From positions 28,873 through 92,872 of the forward strand of contig JAKOXV010000013.1 in NCBI GenBank assembly GCA_029780855.1: DNA of 64,000 nt, written 5' to 3'. The translations under genes were made by a program, and so were the position numbers. Positions 32,940 to 39,082 of the stretch are shown one piece after another. Every line of letters starts with the position of its first letter. The stretch's first letter is position 1. The notes beneath the pieces are model-generated. The model made no database searches and had not been told where the DNA came from. It saw nothing but the letters and a program-made list of their open reading frames with translations. This stretch comes from a bacterium. Lineage in GTDB: Bacteria; Patescibacteriota; Saccharimonadia; Saccharimonadales; JAUPVS01.

Positions 32940-33557
32940 ATGGCTAGAGATAGACAATCAATTGTAAAAATGAGCCGTCGTGAAGGCTATGCGCTTCATC
33001 CTAAGGCTCACAAAGCGCTCGTAAAGCGCAGTACTCCTCCCGGACAGCAATCAATGCGCGGCATGCGAAATAAGCCTAGCCAGTATTCATTGCAGCTTCG
33101 GGAAAAGCAAAAAGTTAAGCGTCTGTACGGCCTCTTAGAGCGTCAGTTCAGCAACCTCATGAAGGAAGCTAGTCGAACCCAAGGCCAATCAGGTGAAATG
33201 CTATTGCAGCTTTTGGAGCGTCGTCTTGACAATGCCGTATATCGGAGTGGATTTGCTCCATCACGACGTGCTGCACGTCAACTTGTTACGCATGGTCACT
33301 TCATGCTAAACGGTCGAAGAGTAGATATTCCCTCTATTCGTCTAAAACCGGGCGATGAAATTGTGCTACGAGACCATAGTAAAAACAATGAGTATTTCAA
33401 GAAAATCGATGAGGTTAGCCCTGCTGGCGACGCAAGCGCAAGCTGGCTTAAGGTTAATCGTAAGAAGTTTGAAGTAAGTGTCACCGGCCTGCCCGCAAGA
33501 GAAGAGGCTGAGCCAGAGATAAATGAACAACTAATAGTTGAGTACTACTCACGTTAA
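32940..33557 (+). CDS. rpsD: 30S ribosomal protein S4 (uS4)
   Basis: 205 aa with an S4 RNA-binding domain. Confidence 0.98.
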   Translation: MARDRQSIVKMSRREGYALHPKAHKALVKRSTPPGQQSMRGMRNKPSQYSLQLREKQKVKRLYGLLERQFSNLMKEASRTQGQSGEMLLQLLERRLDNAVYRSGFAPSRRAARQLVTHGHFMLNGRRVDIPSIRLKPGDEIVLRDHSKNNEYFKKIDEVSPAGDASASWLKVNRKKFEVSVTGLPAREEAEPEINEQLIVEYYSR

Positions 33558-33574
33558 CGGAGGCAGGAAGTAAA

Positions 33575-34516
33575 ATGTCAAAAATGATTCACACACCAGG
33601 AGTTGTAAGCGTCGACGAACACAGCAAGACTAGCGCGACGTTTAGTATTGAGCCTCTCCACACAGGTTATGGTATGACCCTCGGAAACAGTTTGCGACGC
33701 GTACTGCTTTCCAGTATTGCGGGAGCAGGTGTAACCTCCTTCAGAATTGAGGGAGCAACACACGAATTCACCACACTTTCAGGTGTAAAAGAAGATGTAG
33801 TAGAAATTATGCTCAACCTTAAAGGTATACGCTTCCGTGTATTTGGTGATGAGCCTCAAACACTCCGCGTTATCAAAAAAGGTCCTGGAGCGGTAACAGC
33901 CAAAGATATTCAGGTAAACGCGGACGTTGAGGTAGTCAACACTGATCATCCTATTGCTACGCTAGACGGAAAAGCAGAGTTTGTAATGGATATCGTTGTA
34001 GATACAGGCCGAGGCTACCGAACGGTAGATGAAAGTGGCGCTAGAAAAGCTAGCGACATGATTGCTGTTGATACAGTATTTAGTCCAGTACAGCGTGTTC
34101 GATATAAGGTAGAAAATACTCGCGTTGGTCAAATGACTGACCTTGATAAGCTTATCCTAACAGTCGACACCGACGGAACGATCACGCCTCAAGACGCTTT
34201 TGAAGAAGCGGCGGCAATACTGGTTAATCAGTATACTGCTCTTGCAGGACAGACTCGTGTTGAGACTGGTGTTCCTGCAGGTGGTGTAGCTGCCGGCTTG
34301 GGAGTCGCAGATGAAACTGATGATTCAGCAGAGCTAATGACACCAATTGAAGATCTTAATCTGTCTGCCCGAACCACTAACGCACTCATCAATAACGACA
34401 TTCACACACTTAAAGATTTATTTTCTCTCAGTGATGCAGAACTAAGAGACCTTAAAGGTTTTGGAAGTAAAGCACTCGATGAAGTTAAAGAGAAGATGGC
34501 GGAGTTGGAGCTTTAG
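33575..34516 (+). CDS. rpoA: DNA-directed RNA polymerase subunit alpha
   Basis: 313 aa with the N-terminal dimerisation domain (GNSLRRVLLSSI) and a C-terminal HhH domain. Confidence 0.97.
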   Translation: MSKMIHTPGVVSVDEHSKTSATFSIEPLHTGYGMTLGNSLRRVLLSSIAGAGVTSFRIEGATHEFTTLSGVKEDVVEIMLNLKGIRFRVFGDEPQTLRVIKKGPGAVTAKDIQVNADVEVVNTDHPIATLDGKAEFVMDIVVDTGRGYRTVDESGARKASDMIAVDTVFSPVQRVRYKVENTRVGQMTDLDKLILTVDTDGTITPQDAFEEAAAILVNQYTALAGQTRVETGVPAGGVAAGLGVADETDDSAELMTPIEDLNLSARTTNALINNDIHTLKDLFSLSDAELRDLKGFGSKALDEVKEKMAELEL

Positions 34517-34518
34517 GC

Positions 34519-34971
34519 ATGCATCGACACGGATATAAAGGTAGAAAGTTCCATAGGGAACGTGACCAGCGAGAAGCGCTGATTGAAGGGCTCGCAGATT
34601 CTCTCATCAAATACGAGTCTATTGAAACAACAGTTACTAAGGCAAAAGAACTCGTGCCTTATGTTGAAAAACTGATCACCAAAGCAAAAAAGGGTGATCT
34701 GCACAATCGTCGTCAGGTGATTAGCGGTTTGCAAACCGTTGAAAGTGCGCACAAGCTCGTTGATGAGATTGCGCCAAAATTGACGACACGAAACAGTGGG
34801 CACTTGCGTATTGAGCGTACTGGCACTAGGCGGGGAGATAATACTCAAATGGCACGCGTCAGCTTTGTAGACGACCTAACACAAGCTCCTGTAGCTAAGT
34901 CTGCTGCTGCCAATAAGCCAGCTGCAAAAGCTACGCCAAAGAAAACTCCCGCAAAAACGGAGGCTAAATAA
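34519..34971 (+). CDS. rplQ: 50S ribosomal protein L17 (bL17) with Ala/Lys/Pro tail
   Basis: 150 aa with a bL17 core and a basic tail. Confidence 0.96.
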   Translation: MHRHGYKGRKFHRERDQREALIEGLADSLIKYESIETTVTKAKELVPYVEKLITKAKKGDLHNRRQVISGLQTVESAHKLVDEIAPKLTTRNSGHLRIERTGTRRGDNTQMARVSFVDDLTQAPVAKSAAANKPAAKATPKKTPAKTEAK

Positions 34972-35411
34972 TGAAAACTTTTAGTGCAAGACCAACTGAC
35001 GTAAACCGTGTATGGTACGTAATTGACGCAAGCGAAGCTTCGCTGGGTCGTGTTGCGACGGCAGCCGCTAGTCTATTGATTGGTAAAGGTAAGCCGAGCT
35101 TCACTAAACATATTGATGTCGGTGATTACGTAGTAATTGTTAATGCCGATAAACTAGTTGTTACCGGTGATAAGCTAAACAAAAAGATGTACTACCATCA
35201 TTCACACTATCCTGGTGGCTTGAAAGAAGCAACACTCCAAGAAAAAATGGATAAGGATTCTACACAGGTCATTATTAAAGCGATTCGTGGCATGCTGCCA
35301 GTCAATAAACTCCGACCGGCTCGCCTTGAAAGACTTAAGGTGTATGCTGGAAGTGACCATAACCATGAGGCTCAAAAACCTCAGAAATACTCAGTAAAGG
35401 AAGGTAAGTAA
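34971..35411 (+). CDS. rplM: 50S ribosomal protein L13 (uL13)
   Basis: 146 aa. The start overlaps the rplQ stop, so it is fused to the alpha operon. Confidence 0.97.
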   Translation: MKTFSARPTDVNRVWYVIDASEASLGRVATAAASLLIGKGKPSFTKHIDVGDYVVIVNADKLVVTGDKLNKKMYYHHSHYPGGLKEATLQEKMDKDSTQVIIKAIRGMLPVNKLRPARLERLKVYAGSDHNHEAQKPQKYSVKEGK

Positions 35412-35812
35412 TGGCAGCACCAAAAAACTATTTCTATGCACTTGGTCGCCGGAAAAGCTCCACCGCACGCGTTCGATTGATGAACGGGAAAGGTGAGATT
35501 AGCGTTAACGGACAGCCGGCTAACGAATATTTTGCAAACAGTAAAATGCTACTGAACGAACTACAAAAACCGTTTGCAGTTTTAGAACAGGAAAACAAGT
35601 TTGATGTAAGCGCAGTAGTTAGTGGTGGTGGACATGCTGGTCAAGTTGACGCCATTAGACTGGGAATTGCAAAAGCTCTCGCCCTCATGAACGAGGATCT
35701 AAAGAGTACGCTCAAACGTGCTGATCTACTTGGTCGTGACCCCCGCGAGAAAGAACGCAAGAAGTTTGGCCTGAAGGGCGCTCGTAAGCAACGCCAGTTC
35801 ACCAAGCGATAA
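35411..35812 (+). CDS. rpsI: 30S ribosomal protein S9 (uS9)
   Basis: 133 aa ending ..KQRQFTKR. Confidence 0.97.
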   Translation: MAAPKNYFYALGRRKSSTARVRLMNGKGEISVNGQPANEYFANSKMLLNELQKPFAVLEQENKFDVSAVVSGGGHAGQVDAIRLGIAKALALMNEDLKSTLKRADLLGRDPREKERKKFGLKGARKQRQFTKR

Positions 35813-35846
35813 AAAGTTGCCGGCAATGTCGGCTCTTTTTATGTTA

Positions 35847-35875
35847 TTGACAAAAGTTAATAATAGTACTATTGT
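35847..35875 (+). promoter_or_regulatory. Near-consensus promoter (TTGACA-17-TATTGT) driving a short leader transcript
   Basis: Perfect -35 hexamer with a 17-nt spacer. The -10 ends 9 nt before ATG 35885. Confidence 0.5.
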
Positions 35876-35884
35876 ATTTCAGGT

Positions 35885-35965
35885 ATGAAAACAGTGATTA
35901 ACCAATTCTTTTATTTCTGGTTTACAACCCCACCTATGTGGCGGTCGGTTAACTGTTACCTTTAA
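35885..35965 (+). CDS. Candidate 26-codon leader peptide MKTVINQFFYFWFTTPPMWRSVNCYL (aromatic-codon run)
   Basis: Not in the ORF track; I translated it by hand. It lies between a strong promoter and an intrinsic terminator, with six consecutive aromatic codons at 35906-35923. Confidence 0.45.
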   Translation: MKTVINQFFYFWFTTPPMWRSVNCYL

Positions 35966-35998
35966 TACATACAGCAAATAACCATGAAAAACCGCCAC
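35927..35998 (+). promoter_or_regulatory. Candidate anti-antiterminator/antiterminator pairings of the trpS-upstream attenuator
   Basis: 35927-35933 pairs with 35938-35945 (7 bp, one bulge). gtggcggt at 35938-35945 pairs perfectly with accgccac at 35991-35998 (8 bp). Both pairings exclude the terminator stem. Confidence 0.4.
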
Positions 35999-36011
35999 TA
36001 GGGCGGTTTTT
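35986..36011 (+). terminator. Rho-independent terminator (aaaaaccgcc-acta-gggcggttttt)
   Basis: A 6-bp GC-rich stem accgcc / ggcggt with a 5-nt loop, a T5 tail and an upstream A-run. Confidence 0.75.
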
Positions 36012-36031
36012 AAATATATGAAAGGAAATTA

Positions 36032-36274
36032 ATGAAACCCGAACAGCATGAAATTGAAGAAGCGCAGTCTAATATCCCAGTAGAGTTGGTAGATATGGTT
36101 ATGGAATCCCCACGGCTATTCCCCAGCGTAGTTAAATCTATTGGCGGTACAAGTATAGAAGGGATGAGGGCTGCAAGAGATGAACTAGCACTTGAAATAG
36201 CCAGGCGCAGAATGTACGAACATCTTGGGCAGTACGCCACGTATAGACCAGAAGATTCTCCGTTCGTTCGTTAA
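36032..36274 (+). CDS. Hypothetical 80-aa protein
   Basis: SD gaaagga lies 5 nt upstream. The protein is acidic and helical with no recognisable family. Confidence 0.5.
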   Translation: MKPEQHEIEEAQSNIPVELVDMVMESPRLFPSVVKSIGGTSIEGMRAARDELALEIARRRMYEHLGQYATYRPEDSPFVR

Positions 36275-36323
36275 GCTAGGGTATTTGGGCGTTTGAACAA
36301 AATGCGGCTATAATGGAGTAAAT

Positions 36324-37349
36324 ATGAGTAAACAAGTTATATTAACGGGCCTGAGGGCCAATAATGACTTACACCTTGGCAATTACCTTGGTGCATTGCT
36401 CCCTATGGTTGATTTACAAAAGAAATACGCTGGTGAGTACCAAATAAACCTATTTGTCCCTGATTTACACAGTTTTACTACTCCGATTGACCATAGCAAA
36501 CTCTATGAACAGACGATGCATAATCTGAAATTGTTTGTTGCTGCCGGGCTTGATATTGAAAATAGTGACACGTATATCTACCGGCAAAGTTATATCCCAG
36601 CCCATAGCGAGCTCACCGTTATACTCAATAGCTTCACGTACATGGGTGAACTCTCGAGAATGACTCAGTTTAAAGAAAAAGGAGAAGGTAAGCAGAATGT
36701 ATCGGCCGGATTATTTGATTATCCTGTTTTGATGGCGGCAGATATTTTGCTATACGGCGCAATGTACGTACCGGTTGGGGCAGATCAAACCCAGCACGTA
36801 GAATTGACGCGTAATATTGCTATTCGTATGAATAATAAGTTCGGCGAACTATTTACGCCACCAGTGGAAATAAAGAAACAGCTAGAATTTATGTCACAAA
36901 ATGAACGTTTACGGATCCGTGATCTAGTCCAGCCAACGAAAAAAATGAGTAAATCAGACGAATCAGGTATGGGTGTGATATTTTTGAGTGACTCACCAGA
37001 AATCGCGGCGAAAAAGATCATGGGAGCTACCACGGATAGTATGGGTAAAGTCCAGTACGATTATGAAACACAGCCAGGTGTAAGCAATCTTTTGGACATG
37101 CTTGCTACACTGTCTAATGAACCGATTGGTAATGTCGTAAAACGTTATGAAGGCCAAGTCCAATACGGGCCGCTCAAAAAAGATGTGGCAGAGGCTGTAA
37201 AAACGTTTTTGACAGACTTTCAGGGTAAACTTGCAAATGTTAATACAGATAAACTGATGCATAAGCTTGAATCAAGCGAAGCTGAAATGAATGTTATGGC
37301 AAATAGCACCCTCACTAAAGTACAAAAAGCCGTAGGCCTGCGCCAGTAA
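36324..37349 (+). CDS. trpS: Tryptophanyl-tRNA synthetase
   Basis: 341 aa, class I aaRS, with a HIGH-type motif (DLHLGNYLG) and KMSKS (KKMSKSD). Confidence 0.95.
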   Translation: MSKQVILTGLRANNDLHLGNYLGALLPMVDLQKKYAGEYQINLFVPDLHSFTTPIDHSKLYEQTMHNLKLFVAAGLDIENSDTYIYRQSYIPAHSELTVILNSFTYMGELSRMTQFKEKGEGKQNVSAGLFDYPVLMAADILLYGAMYVPVGADQTQHVELTRNIAIRMNNKFGELFTPPVEIKKQLEFMSQNERLRIRDLVQPTKKMSKSDESGMGVIFLSDSPEIAAKKIMGATTDSMGKVQYDYETQPGVSNLLDMLATLSNEPIGNVVKRYEGQVQYGPLKKDVAEAVKTFLTDFQGKLANVNTDKLMHKLESSEAEMNVMANSTLTKVQKAVGLRQ

Positions 37350-37355
37350 CACAAA

Positions 37356-38216
37356 ATGAAATTAGTCGTACCTGAATCAGCTGTAAAACACCGACTTGAT
37401 GTGTTCGTGACTGAAGAGATTGGATCGGTTAGTCGGGCATTTATCGGAAAATTGTGTGACGACGGCAAGATACTAGTTAATGGATCTTCAGTCAAGAATG
37501 GATACAAGCTCAAAGTGAGGGATATTATAGCAATTGACTACGACTTCGAGCGGTTACAGCAAATACCAACTATTGAATTGCCGATACTATACGAGGATGA
37601 AGATTGTATAGTTTTAAACAAACCAGAAGGAGTGTTAACACACAGCAAGGGGGCATTTAATCCGGAAGGTACGGTAGCCACATTTATAGCGCCTAGAATT
37701 ACCGGTATGGATGGCGATAGAGCCGGAATAGTTCACAGGCTCGATCGACTAACCTCTGGTGTGCTTATTGCTGCTAAGAACCGTGCAGCACTCGCCTGGC
37801 TCCAAAAACAGTTCAGTGTACGAAAGGTAAAAAAGACGTACTTTGCAGTTGTTTCAGGTACCCTTGAGCAAAAGGAAGCTATTATAGACATGCCTATAGA
37901 ACGTAATCCAAAAAATCCAAAAACATTTCGGGTGGGTAGTATGGGTAAGCCGGCAGTTACAAAGTATAAAGTAGCTGCTGAGGATCACAATAAAACTTTA
38001 GTCCAGCTTACGCCTGAAACGGGGCGGACACATCAGTTACGCGTTCATCTAGCGCAACTAGGACACCCTATTGTTGGTGATCCATTTTATGGTGAAGTAG
38101 CAGCCGACCGCATGTATTTGCATGCTGAAAGCTTAGAAATAACCTTACCTTCTAGACAAAGAAAAACGTTTGTTGCGCCTCTACCAGACAGCTTTCGCGC
38201 TATACTTAACTCATGA
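37356..38216 (+). CDS. rluD: RluA-family 23S rRNA pseudouridine synthase (RluD-like) with S4 domain
   Basis: 286 aa with the catalytic motif HRLDRLTSG and an N-terminal S4-like domain. Confidence 0.85.
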   Translation: MKLVVPESAVKHRLDVFVTEEIGSVSRAFIGKLCDDGKILVNGSSVKNGYKLKVRDIIAIDYDFERLQQIPTIELPILYEDEDCIVLNKPEGVLTHSKGAFNPEGTVATFIAPRITGMDGDRAGIVHRLDRLTSGVLIAAKNRAALAWLQKQFSVRKVKKTYFAVVSGTLEQKEAIIDMPIERNPKNPKTFRVGSMGKPAVTKYKVAAEDHNKTLVQLTPETGRTHQLRVHLAQLGHPIVGDPFYGEVAADRMYLHAESLEITLPSRQRKTFVAPLPDSFRAILNS

Positions 38217-39082
38217 ATGGACTACTTCTGCATGAGCGCAGTAAACACGAACTAAGTGAGTTCCTGCTTTACCCAAAACAAAGTATTTTGATTGTAGGCC
38301 CCAAAGGTAGCGGAAAACATTCGGTTGCGAAAGTCTTAGTGGCTACCATATTAGGAATTGAGCAAAACAAAGTACACGAACATCAATCGGTACTGTATAT
38401 TTCTGCCGAAAAATCCACCATATCAATAGATGCTATACGAAGGAGCCAAGAGTTTGTCCGGCTAAAAACAGCAGGAAAGGGAAAGATTAGGCGAATTATA
38501 TTTGTTGATGGAGCGCACCATATGACAAAAGAAGCCCAAAATGCATTTTTAAAGCTATTAGAGGAGCCCCCAGAAGATTGTATGATCGTTATGACTACTG
38601 ATAGTCAGGATGCGCTTCTGGCTACAATCCGCTCGCGCACCAATACGTTGCTCCTAAAGCCTCCCTCCAAAGAAACTTCTAGTAGCTATTTTATGGAAAA
38701 AGGTCACAGTACTGATGAAGTACATAAAGCCTACCTTCTTTCCAGGGGCTACGCAGGACTTATGACGACGATTCTCGAACACACCACTGACGACGCTACG
38801 CTAGCTTCTCTAGAAACAGCAAAACAATTTTTGGTTTCAAAAAAATTCGAGCGTTTAGTGATTGCAGATACGGTTGCTAAAAAAAGTTCCGATTTAACAA
38901 GCTTTTTATGGGGATTGCAACGCATTTGTGATGCTGCGCTTCACCAAGCAATTATTAATAGATCTGATACGCAAATAAGATATTGGATCAAAGCATCGAA
39001 ACTTGCGCTTGATTCGCAAGAAACCCTAAAAGCCAATCCCAACGTTAAGTTGCTGTTAACAGATCTGGCACTTCAGCTGTAG
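38213..39082 (+). CDS. holB: DNA polymerase III delta' subunit
   Basis: 289 aa with an AAA+ clamp-loader fold (VGPKGSGKHS, AFLKLLEEPP, TIRSRT). ATGA overlap with rluD. Confidence 0.8.
   Translation: MNGLLLHERSKHELSEFLLYPKQSILIVGPKGSGKHSVAKVLVATILGIEQNKVHEHQSVLYISAEKSTISIDAIRRSQEFVRLKTAGKGKIRRIIFVDGAHHMTKEAQNAFLKLLEEPPEDCMIVMTTDSQDALLATIRSRTNTLLLKPPSKETSSSYFMEKGHSTDEVHKAYLLSRGYAGLMTTILEHTTDDATLASLETAKQFLVSKKFERLVIADTVAKKSSDLTSFLWGLQRICDAALHQAIINRSDTQIRYWIKASKLALDSQETLKANPNVKLLLTDLALQL

Follow-up and report, generated by a model that had tools for sequence, protein, structure and literature searches.

How is transcription of trpS, the gene for tryptophanyl-tRNA synthetase (TrpRS), controlled in Saccharibacteria, a group in which, as in the wider Candidate Phyla Radiation (CPR; Patescibacteria), little is known of gene regulation? 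The question is raised by the spacer between rpsI and trpS in the 64,000-nucleotide stretch of saccharibacterial DNA analyzed here (the window; contig JAKOXV010000013.1). In this spacer a first-pass annotation had noticed a short open reading frame (ORF) rich in aromatic codons, followed by three competing RNA pairings, and had proposed that a ribosome stalled on the ORF tips the balance between a terminator and an antiterminator. We consider it likely that this leader element is a classical ribosome-mediated leader-peptide transcription attenuator, which would report the supply of charged tRNA-Trp and govern read-through into the operon ending with trpS. The proposed logic gains support from a conserved ORF, reading frame, promoter and set of pairings, from compensatory changes in the 1:2 and 2:3 helices, and from a fitting geometry.

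The window sequence by itself is only suggestive. Taken alone, the leader has a fold z-score of -2.47 (3 of 200 shuffles fold equally well), and the surrounding region shows no excess of promoter-like sites (8 found, 10.1 expected). What makes the case for the element is its conservation, together with covariation, across about 100 related copies. On re-reading the sequence, the positions first given for the promoter, the ORF, regions 1 to 4 and the terminator all proved correct, and the parts of the element are as follows.

35847-35852 and 35870-35875, + strand: promoter, -35 TTGACA and -10 TATTGT with a 17-nt spacer, agreeing with the consensus at 10 of 12 positions
35885-35965, + strand: leader ORF of 26 codons, MKTVINQFFYFWFTTPPMWRSVNCYL, with its ATG 9 nt past the -10 box and its stop codon at 35963
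35915..35923, + strand: proposed sensor codons TTC TGG TTT (Phe-Trp-Phe), the Trp codon being 35918-35920
35927-35933, + strand: region 1, accccac, 5' arm of the 1:2 hairpin, forming 7 bp with region 2 with one bulged C
35938-35945, + strand: region 2, gtggcggt, partner of region 1 or region 3
35991-35998, + strand: region 3, accgccac, 5' arm of the terminator and 3' arm of the antiterminator, forming 8 perfect bp with region 2
35987-36011, + strand: intrinsic terminator, AAAAACCGCC-ACUAG-GGCGGUUUUU, -14.5 kcal/mol, with region 4 at 36002-36007 and the T-run at 36007-36011

The TTGACA-17-TATTGT arrangement is the top sigma-70-like match within positions 33000-39000. RNAfold assigns -8.2 kcal/mol to the 1:2 hairpin of the window, and the 2:3 duplex, lengthened by a CUA/UAG pairing, reaches -17.0 to -18.8 kcal/mol and so beats the 3:4 terminator.

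Relatives of the element were collected in two ways. The genome set held one genome per species, with loci (given L numbers here) retrieved by TrpRS similarity; the nearest relatives of the window TrpRS, at 54-76% identity, all come from Saccharibacteria metagenome-assembled genomes (MAGs). These loci were searched for the core T[TA][TC]TGGTT[TC] and then by nhmmer, and the element was found in about 27 of the 43 Saccharibacteria loci. Metagenomes were scanned with a pattern that used DNA only and no trpS information, TGGTTTACN{51,81}CCGYCN{3,12}GGCGGTTTTT, which yielded at least 120 loci, 72 of them true elements among the matches listed. The comparative counts below refer mostly to 98 elements from genomes and metagenomes, and a total of 28 denotes genome elements unless stated otherwise; the metagenome pattern fixed the Trp codon, and the 28 genome elements are free of that bias. 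With a covariance model built from the 98 sequences, 97 of these score 47-96 bits, and exactly one copy is detected in the window, at 65.6 bits.

The element is linked to trpS. Among the matches listed, 28 metagenome elements are followed by 2 kb or more of sequence, and 26 of these have trpS downstream on the same strand, at a distance of 0.2-2.2 kb.

Across the relatives, promoter and leader start stand in a close and regular arrangement. Most of the 28 genome elements show the TTGACA-17-TAnnnT layout, and 31 of the 72 metagenome elements among the matches listed have an exact TTGACA. From the end of the -10 box to the ATG there are 6-10 nt throughout, mostly 7-9, and nearly all elements lack room for a Shine-Dalgarno sequence ahead of the leader ATG. 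Because this gap is too short for such a sequence, the leader mRNA is probably leaderless or nearly so, with a predicted start site deduced from the distance between -10 box and ATG. The leader ORF comprises 15-31 codons in the various copies, and its Trp codon lies 7-15 codons in, usually 9-11. An ATG located 7-16 codons upstream of the Trp codon and followed by an open frame is found in 94 of the 98 elements (1/98 and 4/98 in the other frames); with GTG or TTG starts allowed, all 98 have an in-frame start and an open frame. The frame up to the Trp codon, whose fate in related genomes had been named at the outset as a check on the proposal, is kept in about 100 elements, and the leader is probably translated.

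All 28 genome elements keep the Trp codon, with flanking residues that vary (HWH, YWK, YWL, YWY, SWF, IWF, VWF). The residue before it (W-1) is Tyr or Phe in 90 of the 98 elements, its codon alternating between TAT and TTT/TTC and hence staying aromatic, and Phe follows it (W+1) in 23 of the 28 elements whose retrieval left that position free; residues further upstream of W-1 are far less aromatic in the 98 elements. The run of six aromatic codons to which the first-pass annotation had drawn attention (codons 8-13 of the window leader, F F Y F W F; 35906-35923) is indeed present in the window but is not conserved and represents a feature of the window lineage. As judged from the aligned leaders, the conserved candidate sensor is Tyr/Phe-Trp-Phe around a single Trp codon.

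Conservation of the peptide is limited to 3-4 residues. The N-terminal leader codons give a pN/pS of ~0.7 (0.66-0.85) with pS saturated, which would be weak evidence at best for constraint on the peptide. These values bear on a different type of sensor. The nascent peptide TnaC, MNILHICVTSKWFNIDNKIVDHRP, carries W12-F-N, and by analogy Tyr/Phe-Trp-Phe-Thr in the exit tunnel could arrest the ribosome on free tryptophan or another ligand. Conservation of the leader motif at the amino acid level, with Tyr and Phe swapping at W-1, would suit such a sensor, as would the likeness to W12-F-N and the position of the Trp codon, a median of 14 codons before the stop and near the W12-P24 spacing of TnaC. 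We nevertheless regard it as highly unlikely: the peptide past Trp-Phe-Thr is read in three frames, with no counterpart of D16 or P24 of TnaC and no conserved C-terminus, and the weak constraint seen in pN/pS concerns the N-terminal part. Moreover, a stall at the Trp codon leaves ~11 residues, too short a chain to fill the tunnel, and induction of TrpRS and DAHP-synthase-family genes at high tryptophan makes little physiological sense.

The pairings of the leader RNA were counted on a sequence-only MAFFT alignment of the 98 elements (A3), with shuffles and with the partner slid by 1-3 columns as controls. For the 2:3 helix, 80.4% of the cells are paired, compared with 33-55% when the partner is slid, and 58 cells show double changes, compared with 28.7 after shuffling; none of 500 shuffles reached the observed value, and the result is unchanged when the alignment is fitted instead to the structure of the rival terminator state. 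The last two bases of region 3, which lie in the terminator loop, covary with region 2 (column pair 36/107, GC:59, UA:8, CG:6; column pair 37/106, UA:69, AU:3, CG:3), a covariation that is explained only by the predicted antiterminator. The same two columns of region 2 covary with region 1 (CG:53, AU:9, GC:5 and AU:45, CG:5, UA:5), and compensatory changes occur in the 1:2 helix, for example at columns 16/37 and 17/36. The 1:2 and 3:4 helices taken together are 84.3% paired, with 39 double-change cells against 10.9 in shuffles (0/500 shuffles), and the 3:4 helix has 91% of its cells paired across the 98 elements.

An alignment-free comparison of own with foreign partners yielded -16.1 versus -12.7 kcal/mol for 2:3 (0/20000 permutations) and -7.9 versus -6.6 kcal/mol for 1:2 (3/20000 permutations). 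The three pairings first read from the window are thereby borne out in its relatives, with 1:2 and 2:3 above the shuffle and slide controls. The 1:2 hairpin is found in 28 of 28 genome elements, at -2.7 to -11.6 kcal/mol, and the terminator of the relatives is a CCGCC/GGCGG hairpin followed by a T-run. RNAalifold, run on the first alignment, recovered the terminator only, and the 1:2 and 2:3 helices were for this reason specified and counted explicitly. Realignment with the covariance model left a one-codon insertion in region 1 of the window lineage out of register, so that the 1:2 pair counts understate pairing in that lineage.

The spacing of the parts agrees with what a stalled ribosome would cover. 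Counted in nucleotides past the Trp codon, region 1 extends from W+6 to W+13 and the core of region 2 begins at W+19 (median). Placed by the known footprint size of a stalled ribosome, region 1 falls within the footprint of a ribosome halted at the Trp codon. From region 2 to the leader stop there is a median of 17 nt (interquartile range 14-19), and 21-33 nt separate the stop from region 3. Depending on the element, the GGCGG core of region 2 would encode Trp-Arg, Arg-Gly-Gly or Val-Ala-Val, so that all three frames are used (42/32/24), and the constraint there thus acts at the RNA level. The leader frame is open through region 2 in 97 of 98 elements, compared with 71/98 and 49/98 for the other frames, which indicates selection for a ribosome that would cross region 2. 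When the transcript is cut before region 4 and masked up to W+13 by a ribosome, the minimum-energy fold contains 2:3 in 97 of 98 elements; with no mask, 2:3 is still favored in 92 of 98. In these folding models, default termination therefore seems to require that a ribosome be actively translating across region 2.

From these data the following course of events can be proposed. The transcript would start at the ATG at 35885 or within a few nt of it, and the ribosome would load on a leaderless mRNA. When Trp-tRNA is plentiful, the ribosome would cross regions 1 and 2 to the stop at 35963 and cover region 2 while regions 3 and 4 are being made; the 3:4 terminator would then form, and a transcript of ~125 nt would end at the T-run at 36007-36011. 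When Trp-tRNA is scarce, the ribosome would stall with the UGG at 35918-35920 in its A site, and a shortage of Phe- or Tyr-tRNA may act alike at the flanking codons. The footprint of the stalled ribosome would cover region 1, 6 nt past the Trp codon, and not region 2, ~19 nt past it. Region 2 would then pair with region 3 once the latter is made, at -17 to -19 kcal/mol beating the -14.5 kcal/mol of the terminator, and with the terminator blocked transcription would proceed into an 80-aa ORF and trpS.

An extension of this mechanism, which we put forward tentatively and hold to be rather doubtful, is that Tyr/Phe-Trp-Phe serves as a combined sensor of all three aromatic amino acids through the charging of tRNA-Tyr/Phe, tRNA-Trp and tRNA-Phe. 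The idea stems from the fact that each of the three codons is aromatic and that an A-site stall at any of them would cover W+6 to W+13 and leave W+19 onward free. If it were true, TrpRS would be co-induced with DAHP-synthase-family and prephenate dehydratase genes in bacteria generally seen as host-dependent amino acid auxotrophs, and the element would act as an internal gauge of the aromatic amino acids supplied by the host.

A T-box reads tRNA directly, by means of Stem I and the T-box bulge, and the preference for 2:3 even without a ribosome raises the possibility of a switch that works independently of translation. In such a switch the UGG would be a specifier, pairing with the anticodon of tRNA-Trp, or a ligand or protein would bind, and either would stabilize 2:3 with no ribosome involved. 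UGG is the sole invariant codon, region 2 holds a UGGC complementary to the GCCA 3' end of the tRNA, and trpS is under T-box control in Firmicutes (PMC1262725). With the trpS T-box of Firmicutes our element shares the target, the signal (tRNA-Trp) and the choice between terminator and antiterminator, whereas the Stem I and T-box bulge parts are absent here. The T-box family (RF00230) gave no match at E <= 10 in positions 35700-36400 of the window and none at gathering score in 40 related loci. The ~33 nt before the UGG are too few for a Stem I, and the UGGC/GCCA match becomes UGGA/UCCA in one lineage. That 94 of 98 elements have an in-frame ATG at a set spacing from the -10 box, with 1-4/98 for the other frames, calls for translation, and an ORF held open through region 2 in three frames would be left unexplained without it. 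We accordingly consider a translation-independent switch extremely unlikely.

Returning to ribosome-mediated attenuation, several observations weigh against it. When full-length RNA is folded at equilibrium with the ribosome mask, the terminator wins in 20 of 28 cases and the antiterminator in 8 of 28. We judged this calculation uninformative, the decision presumably being a kinetic one, but it makes the attenuation model depend on co-transcriptional kinetics. The 1:2 hairpin is weak, at -4 to -8 kcal/mol, and, without a ribosome, the 2:3 fold is favored (92/98), so that default termination would rely on a tight, presumed coupling of transcription and translation in Saccharibacteria. A further Trp codon falls within region 2 in 29 of the 98 leaders, and a stall there would favor termination. 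A single sensor Trp codon, where E. coli trpL has two, may confer a modest sensitivity. Furthermore, direct control falls on a small, variable ORF, and trpS has a TATAAT of its own, so that only some of the trpS transcription may come through the attenuator.

The last two points concern the surroundings of the element. The first-pass annotation had placed an 80-aa orphan ORF and then trpS downstream, an order that the ORF calls and Pfam bear out.

ends 35812, + strand: rpsI, last gene of the rpoA-rplQ-rplM-rpsI operon
35819..35839, + strand: terminator-like hairpin (35819-35833), GCCGGCAATGTCGGC, then TCTTTTT
36032-36274, + strand: 80-aa orphan ORF, first gene past the terminator, with an SD-like (Shine-Dalgarno-like) aaagga upstream
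36309-36314, + strand: TATAAT, 9 nt ahead of the trpS ATG
36324-37349, + strand: trpS, tryptophanyl-tRNA synthetase (Pfam tRNA-synt_1b, PF00579, E = 1.3e-57)

The hairpin and T-run at 35819..35839 close the rpoA-rplQ-rplM-rpsI operon and part rpsI from the leader element. At the other end, about 22 of 28 Saccharibacteria loci, attenuator-less genomes included, have a perfect TATAAT 9-12 nt ahead of the trpS start codon, with no conserved -35 sequence (at about position 2980-2992 in L001-L026, L039, L022, L041 and L024). It is probably a basal, -10-only promoter that would give a near-leaderless trpS mRNA. The -10 box which the first-pass annotation had seen at 36309-36314 is thus conserved, but the notion that it might be the only source of trpS mRNA is not favored; probably the attenuator adds inducible read-through and is itself not the sole source.

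The same TATAAT is one reason for asking whether the leader is an independent small gene, encoding a micro-protein or a small RNA, that merely adjoins a trpS operon transcribed from its own promoter; the conservation of TATAAT even in genomes that lack the element agrees with this, and the strong promoter, ORF and terminator do form a self-contained unit. Covariation of region 2 with both regions 1 and 3 points instead to selection for mutually exclusive folds, and the peptide is not conserved beyond 3-4 residues. The T-run is always followed by a same-strand gene that starts 15-40 nt downstream, with no other promoter evident there by eye (no scan was run), and in some operons tandem copies precede successive genes. 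A small gene unconnected with trpS thus strikes us as most improbable.

Under the attenuator model, the synthetase itself has a fitting composition. The window TrpRS (341 aa) contains no Trp at all, and neither do 27 of 54 TrpRS proteins of relatives; the Trp content of the relatives' TrpRS is 0.28%, compared with 0.80% in the other window ORFs. A Trp-free TrpRS fits a protein needed when tryptophan is scarce, yet 5 of 18 long window ORFs are also without Trp.

The interval between terminator and trpS varies. It holds small ORFs, DAHP-synthase-family genes (class I or class II) and genes for prephenate dehydratase and Asp/Glu racemase, besides two recurrent protein families. DAHP-synthase-family or prephenate dehydratase genes are found in L010 (1814-2938), L017 (2076-2969), L019 (996-2114), L039 (2065-2976), L040 (1731-2915) and L021 (1978-2826) and in many metagenome loci. 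Pfam scores exceed the threshold for every listed aromatic-pathway gene but that of L039, which matches nothing in Pfam or NCBIfam and was placed in the group on blastp evidence alone; of the class-I DAHP examples, the two that were tested lie far under the NCBIfam equivalog cut-offs. Such divergent DAHP-synthase-family and prephenate dehydratase genes are unexpected in organisms thought to be without amino acid biosynthesis.

The 80-aa ORF of the window has no tblastn match in the relatives and no Pfam or NCBIfam match, and at its position the relatives carry unrelated small ORFs or other genes.

Among known systems, the element most closely resembles E. coli trpL, with which it shares a short ORF, Trp codons just before or inside region 1, and a 1:2/2:3/3:4 scheme with an intrinsic terminator. 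It differs in having one sensor Trp codon instead of two, a predicted leaderless transcript, a stop after region 2 (in trpL the stop is between regions 1 and 2), and an aminoacyl-tRNA synthetase target in Saccharibacteria, where trpL serves the trp biosynthesis genes of gamma-proteobacteria. The best Rfam match to the window is Trp_leader (RF00513), at 25.9 bits and E = 0.006; since this is under the gathering score of 41 bits, membership of that family was rejected. None of 20 element-bearing loci gave a gathering-level RF00513 match, and an Rfam search of 40 related loci at gathering score found tRNAs alone.

Attenuation ahead of a synthetase gene has precedents. E. coli pheM-pheST is described, in PMC1262725 and PMC11802643, as a leader-peptide attenuator before the synthetase for the amino acid of its own codons. 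Compared with our element, pheM has a run of Phe codons in an ORF led by a Shine-Dalgarno sequence, in contrast to the single Trp codon and the trpS target here, and there is no detectable homology. Classical attenuators were predicted by comparative genomics for trpS2 and leuS of Streptomyces (Seliverstov et al. 2005, PMC1262725). The trpS2 prediction resembles ours in target, in proposed mechanism and in its derivation from comparative genomics alone; it concerned a few genomes of GC-rich Actinobacteria, whereas here ~100 instances with quantified covariation are available. Our literature search found no description of leader-peptide attenuation in Saccharibacteria or the wider CPR group. 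The initial remark that such control of a synthetase appeared to be new thus holds for these organisms, but not for synthetase genes at large, given pheST and the Streptomyces trpS and leuS predictions.

Two further systems share single traits with the element. The aroR leader of Corynebacterium glutamicum (Phe-Tyr-Phe) controls aroF, encoding DAHP synthase, according to the summary of Neshat et al. (2014) in PMC11802643. Both leaders have a mixed aromatic triplet, and in several Saccharibacteria the element stands directly before a DAHP-synthase-family gene; aroR is without a Trp codon and responds to Phe, whereas here Trp is invariant and trpS the constant target. In mycobacteria, leaderless polycysteine short ORFs at the 5' end of polycistronic transcripts act as amino-acid-responsive attenuators (bioRxiv 10.1101/834739). 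The common trait would be a leaderless short ORF attenuator at the transcript 5' end, given the predicted start site of our element; the mycobacterial ORFs have runs of Cys codons, and our element has a covarying intrinsic-terminator switch. Attenuation by the polycysteine ORFs reportedly operates without a canonical terminator/antiterminator pair.

Taken together, a cognate-codon ORF, an intrinsic terminator, a covarying antiterminator, a 1:2 hairpin and a stop placed past region 2 are all found in the element, which, read from its sequence, appears to add to the known class of leader-peptide attenuators of the trpL/pheM type. It is covered by no Rfam family and would be among the few attenuators ahead of an aminoacyl-tRNA synthetase gene, with ~100 instances and three-way covariation; new genomes can now be annotated for it with the covariance model. 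If our interpretation is right, transcription and translation in these reduced epibionts are coupled closely enough for attenuation to work, and Saccharibacteria monitor tRNA-Trp charging and raise TrpRS when tryptophan from the host or the environment is short, some genomes raising aromatic-pathway enzymes too. In practical terms, the element offers a compact, testable readout of amino acid supply in host-epibiont co-cultures.

Within the genome set, the element is absent, among the loci searched, from the animal-associated clade (L027-L038, L042) and from L022 and L041, where rpsI abuts trpS; it was not found in the non-Saccharibacteria loci searched. Second copies, with sensor contexts that diverge (HWH, YWY, YWL), are present in L002 (451-578, 2772-2901), L004 (868-995, 1252-1385) and L019 (852-979, 2139-2272). 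The distance from rpsI reaches 1.5-2.6 kb in relatives (L002, L009); one L002 copy is 102 nt upstream of trpS and 2.6 kb from rpsI. L009 also holds a decayed copy (1853 to about 1990) with an early stop and without the CCGCC/GGCGG terminator.

Some further observations concern neighboring sequences. In the window, an antisense ORF of 39 aa (35879-35998, minus strand) overlaps the leader; an open stretch of comparable length (>=39 aa) exists in only 30 of 98 relatives, and it is probably spurious. The first gene past the terminator in most related loci encodes a fast-evolving protein of 50-150 aa, 49 of 80 being blastp singletons; several of these small proteins share the motif [ED]A..[IL][LM]R...[IV].V...D.RS..EIA, and none of them has a Pfam match. 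The two recurrent families in the interval before trpS consist of proteins of ~350 aa (L002 607-1653, L008 1979-2971, L086, L095) and ~295 aa (L004 1404-2291, L149, L178, L182); neither family is matched in Pfam or NCBIfam, and no Trp residue occurs in any of the members sampled. Finally, a stretch in L059 (1966-2046), from a Patescibacteria MAG outside the Saccharibacteria, is a weak match to the covariance model (31.6 bits). It lies ~1 kb before trpS, has a layout resembling regions 2, 3 and 4 (GGCGGCTTG ... CAAGCCGCC ... GGCGGCTTTTT) with a short Trp-free ORF upstream, and may be a different attenuator.

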